Origin: a virus
Lineage: Duplodnaviria; Heunggongvirae; Uroviricota; Caudoviricetes
DNA: 42,839 bases
Direction: 5' to 3' (one strand)
IMG/VR virus record: IMGVR_UViG_2565956731_000005
Coordinates: 1-42,839 of that record
Position 1 is the stretch's first letter; every line of letters begins with the position of its first letter. The translations under genes were made by a program, and so were the position numbers. Positions 7,296 to 37,508 of this stretch are shown piece after piece. Below the pieces are notes generated by a model. That model searched no databases, had not been told where the DNA came from, and worked only from the letters and a program-made list of their open reading frames with translations.

Positions 7296-7385
7296 TTTAC
7301 ATCGCACTCCTCTTGTGCCATAGTAATCGGGTACTGGCAAAATCCAGTGCCGGGATTGGCGTCCCGAGTTACTAAGTGGCGCATA

Positions 7386-7407
7386 CCACGCCAGACGTGG
7401 TTTTTTT
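7386..7407 (+). terminator. Rho-independent terminator in the ant leader
   Basis: CCACG-CCAGA-CGTGG hairpin followed by TTTTTTT, about 155 bp upstream of the ant start codon. Confidence 0.65.
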
Positions 7408-7563
7408 ATGCGTTAAGCACAGCTATATCCGAATTATGGTGGGCTGGGCAGGGGTCCGAAAGGACGCCGGTACCACTTAGGCCGGTACGCCAACCTTGTC
7501 CAGTTCACCACCAGTAATTGGCGTTGCGGTGGTGATTAAAATCACTAAGTGGAGATAACCACC

Positions 7564-8274
7564 ATGGCTAATGCTCAAACTGCCATCTTCAAATTTGAAT
7601 CTGTTAACCCTATCCGTTCCATCATTATCGATGGCCAACCATGGTTTGTAGCCCAAGACGTTTGTAGTGCGCTGCGTATCCAAAACGTCACCCAAGCACT
7701 TGAAAAACTGGATGATGATGAAAGGTCTATGTTCAACATAGGGCATGAACATCGTGCAATTTTTGACAGCCGAGTAAAAGAGATCAACATCATCTCCGAG
7801 TCAGGCCTCTACACACTGATCCTCCGCTGCCGCGATGCGGTGACACCAGGCACTATCCCCTACCGCTTTCGTAAATGGGTTACAGGTGAGGTTCTTCCTC
7901 AGATCCGCCGCACCGGAAGTTACATTAAAAACTCGCTCCCGCAGGAAGAACGCATAAAGATGGTTGCCGACCAGGTAGCCAACGCCACGGCGTCAGCAGT
8001 AATGCAGGCGATGAAGATAGAGAACAAAACCTACAGTGCCCCACTGAAGCCCGGCTACCGCAGTCTGATTCATTCTCCGTCTGGTGTTCTCGGCCTGACG
8101 GAGAACTCACTGCTGATGAATTTGCTGAACCAGTTACAGGAAGACGGGCACGACGTATCGGGCGCGGCGGCGGAGCTGACCACCATGTTCTGCTACATCG
8201 TCGGTGTGAGTAAATGCCTGCGTGATATCCAGACCCACGCGGAGTACATCAACGACAAGGCAGGGTTCTTCTGA
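7564..8274 (+). CDS. ant: Antirepressor Ant (Bro-N domain plus KilAC-like C-terminal domain)
   Basis: Bro-N signature (AIFKFESVNPIRSIIIDGQPWFVAQDVCSAL…YRFRKWVTGEVLPQIRRTGSY); RBS GGAG 9 nt upstream of the ATG at 7564. Confidence 0.85.
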   Translation: MANAQTAIFKFESVNPIRSIIIDGQPWFVAQDVCSALRIQNVTQALEKLDDDERSMFNIGHEHRAIFDSRVKEINIISESGLYTLILRCRDAVTPGTIPYRFRKWVTGEVLPQIRRTGSYIKNSLPQEERIKMVADQVANATASAVMQAMKIENKTYSAPLKPGYRSLIHSPSGVLGLTENSLLMNLLNQLQEDGHDVSGAAAELTTMFCYIVGVSKCLRDIQTHAEYINDKAGFF

Positions 8275-25780: not shown

Positions 25781-25857
25781 GTGGCATTAGCTCAGTTGGA
25801 CAGAGCAACCGCCTTCTAAGCGGTTGGTCGCAGGTTCGAATCCTGCATGCCACGCCA
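25781..25857 (+). tRNA. tRNA-Arg (anticodon UCU), CCA end encoded
   Basis: Cloverleaf folded by hand: acceptor GTGGCAT/ATGCCAC, D-arm GCTC-AGTTGGACA-GAGC, anticodon stem ACCGC/GCGGT with loop CTTCTAA, T-arm GCAGG-TTCGAAT-CCTGC, discriminator G then CCA. Resembles argU. Confidence 0.9.
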
Positions 25858-26480: not shown

Positions 26481-29126
<2,646 letters not shown>

Positions 29127-29915
29127 GAAGTCGCTGTCTTCCCCGTAGTCATCAACCCATTTCTGCAACTGCTGTTTGTTAGTGCCTTCCACCGTCCGGC
29201 TGTCAATCTGCGCAGTTTTCCAGCGGTGTTTATATTTGCGGAAACATTCGCGGAAACGCCCGGTGTTACGTGTAGGGTTTCCGAACGCCACCCAGATAAT
29301 CTCAGTGTCTTCGTCCGTAAGCGCACCCTCAGCAACTTCCCACACCAGATCCGCAATGTTCGACGCTTCATCGAATACCACGATGATGCGTTTGCGCTCG
29401 TTGTGTAGTCCTGCGAATGCCTCAGTGTTGTGCTCAGACCAGGGGATTGCGTCAGCCCGCCACCGCTTGTCGTGCCCAGGATCATTGCTGTACATCGCGG
29501 TAGCGGTACAGGTAAACCAGTCTTTCGTGATAGCAAGGTTCGACCACTTGATAATTTCCGGCCAGGTCTTCGTTCGTAGCTGGTTGTCGGTGTTGGCGGT
29601 CACCACGACCTTACAATCCTCGCAAGTGGACATGCCCCAGTTGATCAGCATTGAGATGAATGCGGATTTACCAATACCGTGACCAGAAGCGCGTGCCAGC
29701 ATAAGCGGCTGATAGCGCGTCTCTGGATTCTGCAGGTGATCACGTATCTCTCGGAACGCATCAGCCTGCCACTGACGTGGGCCGGTGGCATGTGCCAGTT
29801 CAGTCCCCTCTTCCCCCCATGGGAACGCATAGAGGGCATAGCCAAGCGGATCGTGAGTGAACCCTGCAATATCCTCGATTAACTGCTCTTCAGGAGATAA
29901 CGCTGTATCTGTCAC
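29127..29915 (-). pseudogene. Terminase large subunit, N-terminal (ATPase) fragment
   Basis: Walker A-like ASGHGIGKS; start overlaps the terS stop. The track ORF's last residues ([18 protein letters not shown]) are translated from the IS end, not from terminase. Confidence 0.8.
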
Positions 29916-32620: not shown

Positions 32621-33187
32621 TCACTCTCCTTTGATGCGAATGCCAGCAGCGCGCTCGGCTTCACTTTGTTCCCAAAACCACTTGTGAAGCTCCATAAGCT
32701 TTTCGTCAATCGGTGCATATTTGCGATTAAAGTAGGCCTGAGCATCTTTCTCAGATTCGTCCGGTAATTCGCCAGGGCCAAACAGTGTGTTATAAATCCA
32801 TGCCAGTCCGCTCTTAGCGTCGCCAGTTGCCTGCCATTCGATAATGGCAGCCTGCATGACCAGAATGTTTTTCCCGATTAACAGGTCCAGTTCTTTGAAC
32901 CGGTTGCGGATGTATGCATTCTCGCTTTGTAATTTTGCGTTGCGCTTCTCTGCGGCTTCCAGCTCAACACGCAGCTTCCCTACCGTTAGCGCAATTTCCT
33001 CGTTCTCCTGGTCACGGCGTTTGATGTATTGCTTGTTTCTTTCCCGTTCATCCAGCAGTTCCAGCACGGTTTCTGGTCCGGTCAGAAATTTGAAGGCGTT
33101 GAGCGCATCAATATCCACACCGTAATCTTTAAGTTCCTGTTCACTTAACAAATCATCATCAGCTGGCAACATTAACAGGCGTTCCAT
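32621..33187 (-). CDS. Hypothetical coiled-coil protein
   Basis: Track ORF 32621..33436 overlaps the Lar gene in another frame; the likely start is the internal Met near 33187. Start uncertain. Confidence 0.45.
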   Translation of the reverse strand: MERLLMLPADDDLLSEQELKDYGVDIDALNAFKFLTGPETVLELLDERERNKQYIKRRDQENEEIALTVGKLRVELEAAEKRNAKLQSENAYIRNRFKELDLLIGKNILVMQAAIIEWQATGDAKSGLAWIYNTLFGPGELPDESEKDAQAYFNRKYAPIDEKLMELHKWFWEQSEAERAAGIRIKGE

Positions 33188-33230
33188 TGCTGGAATTGCA
33201 CGTTCCGCCACCTCACGCAGTTCCTGGTAA

Positions 33231-33464
33231 TTAATTTCGCTCACTGGTTGCCTCCTTTGCTCGCTGATTCCACTCGGCTCTAACCTCTGAATAAAAAATC
33301 GCGCAGTCATTTCCAGGCGCTGCATATTTGCTACCAGATTGAGCGCGACACGTACCGCATCGAACGAAATAGAATCGACCGCCAGAGCCATATTCAGGGT
33401 GATCTGCTTCGCTGGCAACGTGCGCTGCACCGCCACAGAATGGACATGGTAGTAGGTTGCTCAT
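33231..33464 (-). CDS. Lar-family restriction alleviation protein (zinc ribbon)
   Basis: LLPCPFCGG…VRCGTCRA…EWNQR pattern of Lar-like proteins; ATG overlaps the stop of the upstream gene. Confidence 0.6.
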   Translation of the reverse strand: MSNLLPCPFCGGAAHVASEADHPEYGSGGRFYFVRCGTCRAQSGSKYAAPGNDCAIFYSEVRAEWNQRAKEATSERN

Positions 33465-34051
33465 GAATGCACTCCCTTGTGAAGCTGTTCCGCACAATGC
33501 AGCAGGGCGTCAGTCGCCTCTTTCACCGTAACGCAGTCGCCATCGTCCAGCCCGGACACCGACGCGTGCTTAACGAACGCCGCGCAAAGGTCATCAAACG
33601 CCTTAGCCCGGACTTCAGCCAGGAAAGCATCGGTGGCTGGGGTGTCTGATTGCATAGACTTTGCGCGATAGTCATTCCACCCTCTTGCATACATGGGATT
33701 AACTTGCACTCCATCTTTTACGCAATATGCCTGCCCTCCACGGTTGATAACCTTGATTTCGTCCATAGCGCCAGACTTCAGCCCCGCATTCTCCGCCGCC
33801 AGCGCCGAAAACTTCTCGTGTGCCAACTTAACAGCCGCATCAGCCTGCTTAATTGACTCAATCGCGCTCTGGTGGTCTTCGGCCAGCGCATTAGCACGCA
33901 CCAGTTGCACTTCCAGTTGCACTTCCAGTTGCGTTGCCAAATCGCTGATCAGCTTTGCCACACTGCGCATATCAACGGCACCACATTCAGCTTTCAGTTC
34001 CGAAGCCATCTCATGCCCGGCGGCAACTAACCCTTTGATATTACTTTCCAT
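33461..34051 (-). CDS. Hypothetical protein with in-frame tandem repeat
   Basis: 196-aa ORF; contains LEVQLEVQL encoded by 2.6 copies of a 12-bp tandem repeat at 33902..33933. Confidence 0.5.
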   Translation of the reverse strand: MESNIKGLVAAGHEMASELKAECGAVDMRSVAKLISDLATQLEVQLEVQLVRANALAEDHQSAIESIKQADAAVKLAHEKFSALAAENAGLKSGAMDEIKVINRGGQAYCVKDGVQVNPMYARGWNDYRAKSMQSDTPATDAFLAEVRAKAFDDLCAAFVKHASVSGLDDGDCVTVKEATDALLHCAEQLHKGVHS

Positions 34052-34112
34052 CTTTACCCTCGTTTATCCACATAACTTATTGATTACATTGATAACTAAA
34101 AAGATCGTCGAT

Positions 34113-34457
34113 TCAGAACTCTTCGATGTTCCAGCCACCACCTGCTTTCTTTGGTTTAACCGTTACCCCGATGATTCGGAACGGATATTGATCTGCGGCG
34201 ACTTTGGTTTTCACCCTGGCGTCGTCGGTCCAGAAACCTTTCACTTCGTGCAGTTCCATCTCGCCGGTGGCGAGCATCACAGCAAAATCGGGCGTATAGA
34301 ACGTGTTGTCAGCTAACCGCAGCTTGATACCCTCGAATCGATACCAGGCGATTTCCCCTGCACGTTTACGCTGCTCAAGGTGCTGGCAATACGCAGATTC
34401 TGTTTTGTTCATCTGGCCTGTTTTGAGTCGACCAAGAGCCTGTATCTGTTTTCTCAT
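34113..34457 (-). CDS. Small putative PD-(D/E)xK endonuclease
   Basis: Motif YTPDF…ELHEVKG fits the PD-(E)xK fold; RBS GAGG upstream. Confidence 0.45.
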   Translation of the reverse strand: MRKQIQALGRLKTGQMNKTESAYCQHLEQRKRAGEIAWYRFEGIKLRLADNTFYTPDFAVMLATGEMELHEVKGFWTDDARVKTKVAADQYPFRIIGVTVKPKKAGGGWNIEEF

Positions 34458-34574: not shown

Positions 34575-35375
34575 TTACTTGATAAATCCTGCCGCCTTTC
34601 CCCGCCTGTATTCCTCCATCAGCCACTGCGCCGGTGTTATTCCCCCAAGGGTGGCAGCGTTAGGCATGCACCCGAAACTTCGTCCTGGTGGATGGTAAAC
34701 GTCTCTCCCTGTGTCCGGAGGCGTACTCATGGGCTCTGGCTTTGCCTGTATGCTGATCACCGGATCGGGTATCTGCTGTCCGGAAGCCACCTTTTTCGCC
34801 CAATCATCGAGCAGCCTGCGTGCGTGTTTCTCAACCTCAATCTCGCTAAGCTGGCGCTGATACATTGCACGGCGGGTATCACATACGACCCAGTACATAA
34901 CCGGATGTCGCCACGGGAATCTTTCGGGACCACCAGGATATAAACTTTTTTCCTTGCTGTACCGGTGAAACTCCGCCATCACATCGTCAATGGTGACGCC
35001 AAGAACCATCTTGCTGTCTTTGCACCACTTGATAAATTGCCCTGGAGACGGCCAGAACGGAGATTCACTGGCGCGGGCGTGGCGCATACCAGCAGAAACC
35101 TGTTCACGGGTTCGGATCCCCCCTTCGGCAAACGCAGCAATCCACTGCTGTTTTGCAGCAACTTCCTGCTCTGGCGTCTTCAGGTTGGTTACCACTGCCG
35201 CCGGAAACAGTTGTTTCAGCTGTTTAAAAAGGGCATCAACAAGCCTCTCTGCTGACATGTTCACCACATTGTCATTGTTGACGTACTGATGCTCATAACC
35301 TGACATGCGAGAAAGGGCTTCTCCGTCACGGTTTTGTATCGCGGTAAAAACGTTGTTCACAAGAAATCCTTCCAT
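34575..35375 (-). CDS. Replication protein P-like (DnaB helicase loader)
   Basis: N-terminal region aligns with lambda P as recalled (…EQVSAGMRHARASESPFWPSPGQFIKWC… versus lambda …EQVNAGMRVARRQNRPFLPSPGQFVAWC…). Confidence 0.8.
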   Translation of the reverse strand: MEGFLVNNVFTAIQNRDGEALSRMSGYEHQYVNNDNVVNMSAERLVDALFKQLKQLFPAAVVTNLKTPEQEVAAKQQWIAAFAEGGIRTREQVSAGMRHARASESPFWPSPGQFIKWCKDSKMVLGVTIDDVMAEFHRYSKEKSLYPGGPERFPWRHPVMYWVVCDTRRAMYQRQLSEIEVEKHARRLLDDWAKKVASGQQIPDPVISIQAKPEPMSTPPDTGRDVYHPPGRSFGCMPNAATLGGITPAQWLMEEYRRGKAAGFIK

Positions 35376-36172
35376 GCTTCAGGGCTGTTCCAGTGCGGAA
35401 CGTTGTTATCAGGTAATGTTGATTGCTTCTGTCTGCTAATCTGCAGCCGCCTTGCCAGCTTCTGCTCCCACTGTGCCTGATGGTATGCCTTACCCTCAGC
35501 CATCCAGTAAATTCTGAACTCTACAAGTTCCTGTGCCGTTGGCAGACTGTCCAGGTAGATCCCCTGCAATGAGCTTTTCCGAAGAAAGTCATCTGATGGC
35601 TGCCATTGTTCATGCATGACAAATTTGCCTAATTGCCCTGGCCCACCAGGAGGAACAAAGTTATTCATCACGGCGTTGTTTGCGCCGGGGTCATGAGGCA
35701 CAGAATCCCCGCTTTTTGTCCTGCTCTCCCTCTCTTGGTTAAATGACTGGTTATATGACTGGTTCTGGATCCCGTTTTTGGGATCATTCAACATCCCGTT
35801 TTTGGGATCATTCAACATCCCGTTTTTGGGTATATTCCCGTTTTCGGGAACATTACCGTTTTCGGGTTCATTGCCCCCCTCCCGGTTGCCTTTAATGTTC
35901 CCGTTTTTGGTTATATTAAGAGAGAAAACCCGCACTCTTTTTGTCGCTCCCTTTCTCTCTCCGGTATCTGAAATAAGCCCCATTTTCATGAGCGATATAA
36001 GCCCGGCCTGCACGGTTTTTTTATTCAGGCAAGTGTCTTTAACGAGGCGTTCTATGCTGGGGTAGCAGAGGTTATATTCATCGGCTCTGTCAGCCATCGA
36101 GAGCAGTATGAGCTTTAATGATGAGCTACCTGGATCTGTCTCCCAGGCCCAATCTGTTGCATGTCTGCTCAT
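35357..36172 (-). CDS. Replication initiator (O-like) with ori iterons inside the coding sequence
   Basis: N-terminal DNA-binding-like domain; central repeats (PENGNVPENGNIPKNGMLNDPKNGMLNDPKNG) are encoded by the iteron array, as the lambda origin lies inside O. Confidence 0.7.
   Translation of the reverse strand: MSRHATDWAWETDPGSSSLKLILLSMADRADEYNLCYPSIERLVKDTCLNKKTVQAGLISLMKMGLISDTGERKGATKRVRVFSLNITKNGNIKGNREGGNEPENGNVPENGNIPKNGMLNDPKNGMLNDPKNGIQNQSYNQSFNQERESRTKSGDSVPHDPGANNAVMNNFVPPGGPGQLGKFVMHEQWQPSDDFLRKSSLQGIYLDSLPTAQELVEFRIYWMAEGKAYHQAQWEQKLARRLQISRQKQSTLPDNNVPHWNSPEAWKDFL
35769..35917. repeat. Replication-origin iteron array
   Basis: Two perfect 24-bp direct repeats ATCCCGTTTTTGGGATCATTCAAC (35769..35792 and 35793..35816) plus at least four degenerate copies of CCCGTTTT(T/C)GGG, followed by an A+T-rich stretch. 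Confidence 0.8.
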
Positions 36173-36923: not shown

Positions 36924-37508
36924 ATGAAAAGTATCCAGGACGTCCGCAGGCAAAATCTCAACGACTTGATCGACCGTGAATTCAATGGTGTTCAGACGCG
37001 GATGGCTGAAAAACTTGGAACTCAGGCAAATCTGGTAAACCGCTGGGCTCTTGGCAAGAAGGTTATCGGCGACCAGGTTGCACGAAAAATTGAAGCTGCC
37101 GCCAATAAACCCCGTAACTGGCTTGATATCGATCGCTCGCTTTCTCAGGAAGGTTTTCAGCCTGTCGGCCCAAGCGACATTGGCCAGCTGGCGGCTCACA
37201 ACCTGGAACGCTGGATGAGCGAAAGCCGCGACCTTTCAACACAGGGAAAACTTCACCGCGCATCCGGCGTAGCCCAGGTGACAATCAGCCGCCTGTTAAA
37301 CAATGAGGTCAGCGTTTCCATTTCCACCCTGGAGAATGTTGCATCCGCATTCGGGCGTCACGGCTATGAATTACTGATTCACCCGCACGACCCTGCGACC
37401 ATCAACTATGACCGCTCGCGCTACGCATTGTTACCCGAAACCGAGAAAGCAAAGATCGAAAGTTACATTGAATTTGTCATCAACCAGAACGAAAAAAACA
37501 AACAATAA
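36924..37508 (+). CDS. Prophage repressor, tandem HTH (XRE-type), no S24 peptidase domain
   Basis: Two HTH-like segments (QTRMAEKLGTQANLVNRWALGKK and LHRASGVAQVTISRLLNN); C-terminus shows no Ser/Lys autocleavage motif; divergent from the Cro-like gene; followed by a terminator. Confidence 0.7.
   Translation: MKSIQDVRRQNLNDLIDREFNGVQTRMAEKLGTQANLVNRWALGKKVIGDQVARKIEAAANKPRNWLDIDRSLSQEGFQPVGPSDIGQLAAHNLERWMSESRDLSTQGKLHRASGVAQVTISRLLNNEVSVSISTLENVASAFGRHGYELLIHPHDPATINYDRSRYALLPETEKAKIESYIEFVINQNEKNKQ

Follow-up and report, generated by a model that had tools for sequence, protein, structure and literature searches.

An EaE-like prophage gene carries a rare expanded allele of an in-frame 12-bp repeat, very probably of slippage origin

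The window analyzed here is the whole of a 42,839-nucleotide stretch, positions 1 to 42,839 of the IMG/VR virus record IMGVR_UViG_2565956731_000005, and the gene of interest lies on its minus strand at 33461..34051. The minus-strand genes of this locus follow each other in the order O-like replication initiator with DnaT and HTH_36 domains (35357..36172), replication protein P (34575..35375), DUF1064 gene (34113..34457), repeat gene, Lar-family restriction-alleviation gene (33231..33464; Pfam PF14354, E = 1.9e-9) and, two positions downstream of the repeat gene, Ead/Ea22-like gene (32621..33436; PF13935, E = 2.6e-28, 99.7 bits). Beyond the O-like gene there are a repressor-like HTH gene (36924..37508) and YqaJ, RecT recombinase and integrase genes. 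On the other side of the locus, an epsilon15-type GP7 capsid gene and a portal gene are found, the terminase coming after the Ead/Ea22-like gene. The identical gene order is annotated in two complete Escherichia coli genomes. Judged by its neighbors, the repeat gene belongs to the early-right part of a prophage of phiV10/epsilon15 type and follows the replication genes, and calling it an early gene, as was done in the preliminary description of this DNA, is reasonable by gene order, that is, by position only. The O-like gene has a cluster of tandem repeats of its own at 35736..35872 (2.4 copies of 12 bp, 2.6 copies of 24 bp that are 100% identical, and 3.1 copies of 18 bp), which encodes NGNVPENGNIPKNGMLNDPKNGMLNDPKNG and resembles origin iterons that lie within the initiator gene, as they do in lambda.

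The repeat gene starts with ATG, and a Shine-Dalgarno-like GAGGG (34057..34061, minus strand), read directly from the sequence and conserved in all aligned relatives, is situated 5 bases before it. At the other end the TGA stop codon overlaps the ATG of Lar (ATGA at 33461..33464), and this overlap suggests that the two genes may be translationally coupled. The ORF originally listed for Lar, with a TTG start at 33497, heavily overlaps its neighbor; Lar actually begins with the ATG at 33464. The ORF listed for the Ead/Ea22-like gene, with a GTG start at 33436, also heavily overlaps its neighbor, and the actual start is probably well downstream of 33436, since the Pfam match begins only at residue 66. 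Both genes are annotated as partial in strain VE-V11-M, which makes the stretch 32621..33497 a patchwork.

The product of the repeat gene is 196 aa long and identical to WP_024009240.1/ETF35368.1 of E. coli UMEA 3489-1 (exact look-up), a protein present on one contig. Its relatives are labeled "EaE protein," "eae-like domain protein," "ORF9" (ST104), "YfdS family" or "hypothetical," and some proteins sharing the same N-terminal module are labeled "ead/Ea22-like." At the DNA level the gene is 90.4% identical, over 71% of its length, to the "EaE protein" gene of phage vB_EcoP-720R6, and its N-terminal module is 98-99% identical to the "eae-like" genes of phages phiV10 and ZX5, a 12-bp gap aside. 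The PHROG matches (492, E = 1.9e-47; 614, E = 4.8e-32; and 250) are all of "unknown function." No Pfam match at E <= 0.01, no match to PF13935 (Ead/Ea22-like) and no NCBIfam match at E <= 1 was obtained for ORF 33461..34051, and the best hit of the 196-aa protein in a PDB profile search had an E value of 0.22. The EaE-like "family" is an annotation label without a curated model, and it is by similarity and annotation that the protein is placed in this loosely defined group. We therefore describe the gene, on the basis of the ORF list, the exact look-up, the annotations of the relatives and the PHROG matches, as one for a mosaic accessory protein, EaE-like ("eae-like domain," ST104 ORF9-like).

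Tandem Repeats Finder delimits an array inside this gene at 33901..33932 (period 12, 2.7 copies, 100% matches, no indels, score 64). Read directly, the tract is CCAGTTGCACTT CCAGTTGCACTT CCAGTTGC, 32 bp in total, that is, 2.67 perfect copies of a unit which is CCAGTTGCACTT on the plus strand and GAAGTGCAACTG on the coding (minus) strand, and it stands out as a clean 12-bp gap in comparisons with 1.67-copy alleles. The span previously given, 33902..33933, lies one base too far to the right (position 33933 is g, and the unit has a there), while the tract itself is real. The peptide LEVQLEVQL had been assigned to the right gene: the ORF is present on the minus strand with an ATG start and 196 aa, and its translation includes ATQLEVQLEVQLVRANALA, with residues 41-50 (QLEVQLEVQL) encoded in frame by nucleotides 33902..33931. 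By chance, 20 consecutive matches at lag 12 would be expected approximately 3e-8 times for that lag and 1.7e-6 times across lags 4-60. In 30 first-order Markov simulations of the window the maximum run length was just 10-13, and in the window itself the lag-match run of the tract is the second longest, behind the repeats of the O-like gene. The tract is the trace of a duplication event and not a chance occurrence. Two antisense ORFs reading over the repeat on the plus strand (33693..34316 and 33872..34030) were considered and rejected as unsupported.

The repeat belongs to a conserved N-terminal module (residues 1-57, MESNIKGLV...ATQLEVQL[EVQL]VRANALA; 33881..34051, minus strand), which in different carriers is joined to many different downstream modules. 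Most relatives have one unit less than the window. When the full protein was used as a query, 108 of 120 protein-cluster representatives had a single QLEV followed by QL, one had two units (P0009, strain VE-V11-M), and the remaining 11 comprised one point-mutated unit and ten proteins with an unrelated N-terminus. The 188-aa cluster sibling P0129 was examined as a possible contraction allele and rejected, as it has a different N-terminus and one unit. In the common allele the tract is CCAGTTGC-ACTT-CCAGTTGC, i.e., an 8-bp direct repeat with a 4-bp spacer encoding QLEVQL (1.67 copies); the window allele is this allele plus one extra 12-bp unit, which adds Leu-Glu-Val-Gln. Each of the 16 phage genomes with at least 80% coverage of a 202-bp module query, among them phiV10, TL-2011b, PAS61 and ZX5, has 1.67 copies and is 12 bp shorter here than the window.

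The N-terminal module is present in approximately 460-500 of 5426 complete E. coli genomes. A 53-nt junction query that is passed only by alleles of 2.67 copies or more matched exactly two of them, both with 2.67 copies, VE-V11-M (Viet Nam) and 602687 (Bangladesh). A synthetic 0.67-copy query likewise found exactly two genomes with 0.67 copies, MS20653 and MS20654 (both from Finland), which encode ATQLVRANALA. A synthetic 3.67-copy query had no full-length match in the complete E. coli genomes; its top match was 602687 with 2.67 copies, and the other 59 matches were listed as 24 bp shorter, corresponding to 1.67 copies. Thus four of the approximately 460-500 carrier genomes are non-modal (about 1%), and the others appear to have 1.67 copies, a figure of about 99% that is the remainder of this count together with approximately 130 listed matches and not a base-by-base check of each genome. 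Three further 0-unit alleles, on three more downstream backgrounds, were found among fragmentary proteins when a synthetic three-unit query was run against a collection of 5.8 billion proteins; this query returned only proteins of up to 106 aa, mostly fragments or frameshift products, so that full-length two-unit alleles were not enumerated by it. An exact search for a 31-nt string specific to 2.67 copies came up empty in GTDB species representatives, IMG/VR and JGI metagenome contigs, a result informative as evidence of rarity only.

The length polymorphism anticipated in the preliminary description, with invariance across isolates as the contrary outcome, does therefore exist: comparison across related prophages reveals alleles of 0.67, 1.67 and 2.67 copies, separated by exact 12-bp steps and all in frame, but only about 1% of the carriers deviate from the mode. 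All three allele classes encode full-length proteins. Diverged modules of Salmonella and Citrobacter, approximately 64% identical, retain ATQLEVQLVR, and since these homologs keep one unit, the modal and conserved state of 1.67 copies is evidently also the ancestral one. The window carries a rare derived allele, expanded by one unit.

It is exceedingly unlikely that the extra 12 bp are an assembly or sequencing error of a draft assembly. The exact protein of the window is indeed found on one contig only. However, two complete genomes of independent origin, one from Viet Nam and one from Bangladesh, have the identical 53-nt junction, and their two-unit proteins occur on 8 and 4 contigs; a clean in-frame duplication of 12 bp is atypical of sequencing errors. 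The rare alleles are each represented by 1-8 contig records and are thus heritable rather than read errors.

How the variants came about is suggested by the structure of the ancestral tract. The two copies of CCAGTTGC, lying 4 bp apart, would form a direct repeat that could misalign during replication or repair, and each such slipped-strand mispairing would add or remove exactly 12 bp, giving the series 0.67, 1.67 and 2.67, in frame throughout. Slippage, which had already been proposed as the source of variation from the repeat itself, is now supported, as an inference, by the 8-bp direct repeat, by alleles that differ in whole units and by their occurrence on several haplotype backgrounds. 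Levinson and Gutman are said to have presented slipped-strand mispairing between short direct repeats, in 1987, as a general mechanism of short in-frame tandem duplications and deletions. The locus does not differ materially from such indels: the copies are perfect and head-to-tail, the progenitor contains misalignable 8-bp direct repeats flanking the unit, whole units are both gained and lost, and non-modal alleles are rare.

The three expanded alleles (window, VE-V11-M and 602687) belong to genes of 196, 168 and 218 aa, respectively, and differ in their SNP haplotypes. Apart from the 12-bp insertion, VE-V11-M is identical over 61 upstream and 231 coding bases to ML35, PEC399 and E2865, which have 1.67 copies. 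The window allele has a G 57 bp 5' of the repeat, in common with other 1.67-copy alleles, and a private upstream A. In 602687 the 5' side differs at three further positions, 33-92 bp from the repeat, and the 3' flank is different as well. Three flanking haplotypes and architectures favor two or three independent duplications, i.e., recurrent slippage.

A different history would be a single duplication that was later moved between haplotypes and architectures by recombination or gene conversion, at a site not unusually prone to slippage. The family is mosaic enough for this: among 12 relatives, approximately nine central and eight C-terminal variants are joined at conserved linkers, a module junction lies approximately 20 bp from the repeat in this heavily recombining family, and MS20653 and MS20654 share a private upstream SNP and differ in their C-terminal module, so that an indel allele can evidently be shuffled. 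On the other hand, the expanded alleles differ at SNPs 33-57 bp 5' and within approximately 30-60 bp 3' of the repeat, and a single origin would consequently need several very short conversion tracts. Alleles of both gain and loss exist, the 0-unit state being found on at least four downstream backgrounds, and the ancestral 8-bp direct repeat is a textbook substrate for slippage. A single origin may be regarded as the less likely course of events, though with a modest chance of being correct.

The mosaicism extends over the whole family, which in 12 sequences has a constant N-terminal module, an optional segment of 28 aa, approximately nine alternative central segments, the conserved linker TPATDAFLAEVRA, approximately eight C-terminal segments and a conserved tail that is AEQLRKGGNQ in the family and LHKGVHS in the window. 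Such mosaicism is already a familiar trait of early regions in lambdoid and P22-like phages. The optional segment (residues 58-85, EDHQ...FSALA; 33797..33880, minus strand) is helical and was delimited from the sequence and from protein and DNA alignments. Its 84 bp, exactly four heptads, are precisely missing from relatives of 168 and 164 aa, e.g., VE-V11-M and ML35, and are bounded by an 8-bp direct repeat, GCCAGCGC, at 33798..33805 and 33882..33889. The stretch 33797..33889 is thus a second repeat-bounded in-frame indel within the same gene. Many copies of the family are truncated or frameshifted, e.g., that of strain 07_3636 and the short proteins returned by the three-unit query, and the gene therefore appears to be dispensable in prophages.

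In DNA and protein similarity, early-region position and mosaic build, the gene resembles the EaE genes of vB_EcoP-720R6, HF4s, EC.W1-9, phiV10, PAS61 and ZX5, whereas the extra LEVQ unit sets the window allele apart from the EaE genes of the 16 module-bearing phages. In phage epsilon34 an eaE-like N-terminus joined to other domains had been reported earlier (PMC2629481). In build the protein also resembles Ea22: both combine an N-terminal region with a long helical or coiled-coil stretch, exchangeable C-terminal domains and a conserved basic-Gly tail (LRKGGNQ or LHKGVHS in the repeat-gene family, K/RGE in Ea22). A prolysogenic role has been shown for lambda ea22 (PMC7093339), but in the window the PF13935 match belongs to ORF 32621..33436 and not to ORF 33461..34051, and this role is consequently not transferable to the repeat-gene protein.

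As for the consequences at the protein level, an AlphaFold2 monomer model based on an alignment of 56 sequences is weak as a whole (pLDDT 68.6, pTM 0.27) and weak outside one long helix, which is predicted for residues 28-92, with block pLDDT values of 83-89 across residues 31-80, and contains the repeat. Foldseek comparison of the model with the PDB gave a best E value of 1.6. In this model an extra LEVQ would lengthen the helix by just over one turn (approximately 6 Angstrom) and would shift any downstream heptad phase by four, a "stutter." Brown, Cohen and Parry reportedly described stutters in 1996 as four-residue insertions in the heptad pattern of coiled coils. The likeness to these is that of a four-residue insert in a long helix with a phase shift of four, as judged by arithmetic and a crude scan, the helix being that of the monomer model only. 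The scan, a home-made heptad score, found weak and shifting registers, and the segments flanking the repeat were in phase only in the one-unit allele, which is weak evidence. Flanks in the same phase might hint at purifying selection for one unit.

It could be argued that variation in the number of LEVQ units is adaptive, tuning a coiled-coil stalk in length or register and thereby the geometry of the oligomers or the partner recognition of a modular phage effector. The unit is found in the longest and most confident helix of the model, the neighboring optional segment of exactly 28 residues, or four heptads, suggests a periodicity constraint on the helix, and relatives called Ea22, composed of a coiled coil and variable C-terminal domains, affect the lysis-lysogeny choice (PMC7093339). 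Nevertheless, such selected length tuning is very unlikely: about 1% of the carriers differ from one unit, no allele exceeds two full units, the one-unit state has been kept across genera, which points to purifying and not diversifying selection, and the Pfam, NCBIfam, PHROG, PDB profile and Foldseek searches gave the protein no known function. If it were true, one possible gain would be escape from a host defense sensor. An extended version, in which the LEVQ count and the 28-residue segment together would act as a length and register adjuster of a stalk presenting swappable C-terminal effectors, the rare alleles being selected because they alter oligomer geometry or evade defense, is very improbable.

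Also extremely improbable is a role at the level of DNA or RNA, with the repeat serving as iteron-like protein-binding sites or as an RNA structure and not merely as coding sequence. Iteron-like repeats are indeed present 1.8 kb away in the O-like gene (35736..35872). However, the second full unit is missing from approximately 99% of near-identical relatives, there is no Rfam match at the repeat, and the unit reads in frame and has been kept at the protein level in diverged homologs.

Nor can the locus be likened closely to bacterial contingency loci, which, according to the work attributed to Moxon and colleagues, are phase-variable simple-sequence repeats. A tandem repeat within a coding region whose copy number changes, here presumably by slippage, is common to both. 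In contrast to contingency loci, the 12-bp unit is a multiple of three and so causes no ON/OFF frameshift, the maximum is 2.67 copies and not a long array, and variation over approximately 500 genomes is rare and not hypervariable. A phase-variable contingency locus was rejected on both counts, since neither an expression switch nor a long array changing at high frequency among close relatives was found.

The 12-bp tract is thus very probably an ordinary slippage-type indel polymorphism, a derived duplication of one unit in a conserved helical module, and not a programmed switch. The variant is most likely neutral or mildly deleterious, because non-modal alleles amount to about 1%, more than one extra unit is never seen, and the gene family is often truncated or frameshifted in prophages. 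Across the genomes compared, the copy number polymorphism is rare and bears no sign of being functional.

In this case an eye-catching perfect repeat in a prophage gene has turned out to be a rare ordinary indel allele, neither regulatory nor hypervariable, and it can be dropped as a candidate switch. Nothing about it is new: public databases already contain the protein sequence, and the phenomenon is textbook knowledge. The locus nevertheless provides a clean natural case of an 8-bp direct repeat at which units are both gained and lost, and the 2.67-copy allele, present in less than 1% of carriers, might find minor use as a marker in strain or prophage typing. Biologically, the mosaic context, a conserved N-terminal helical module with combinatorial downstream fusions, is more interesting than the repeat.

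Some other features of the window can be mentioned. An IS21-family insertion sequence of approximately 1954 bp (27173..29126), with an IstA-like gene containing an rve domain (27259..28281) and an IstB gene (28278..29060), interrupts the large terminase gene, the halves of which are ORFs 26481..27206 and 29070..29915. The alignment with the uninterrupted relative has a 5-bp overlap, which would fit a target-site duplication of 5 bp. Packaging is probably defective in this prophage. Rfam identifies isrK (7331..7407, 63.5 bits) adjoining a C4 antisense RNA (7432..7515, 66 bits) upstream of ORF 7549..8274, a layout which we take to be that of P1/P7-type antirepressor immunity regions. A tRNA-Arg gene (anticodon TCT; 25781..25857) lies in the prophage, with the portal gene on one side and the interrupted terminase gene on the other.
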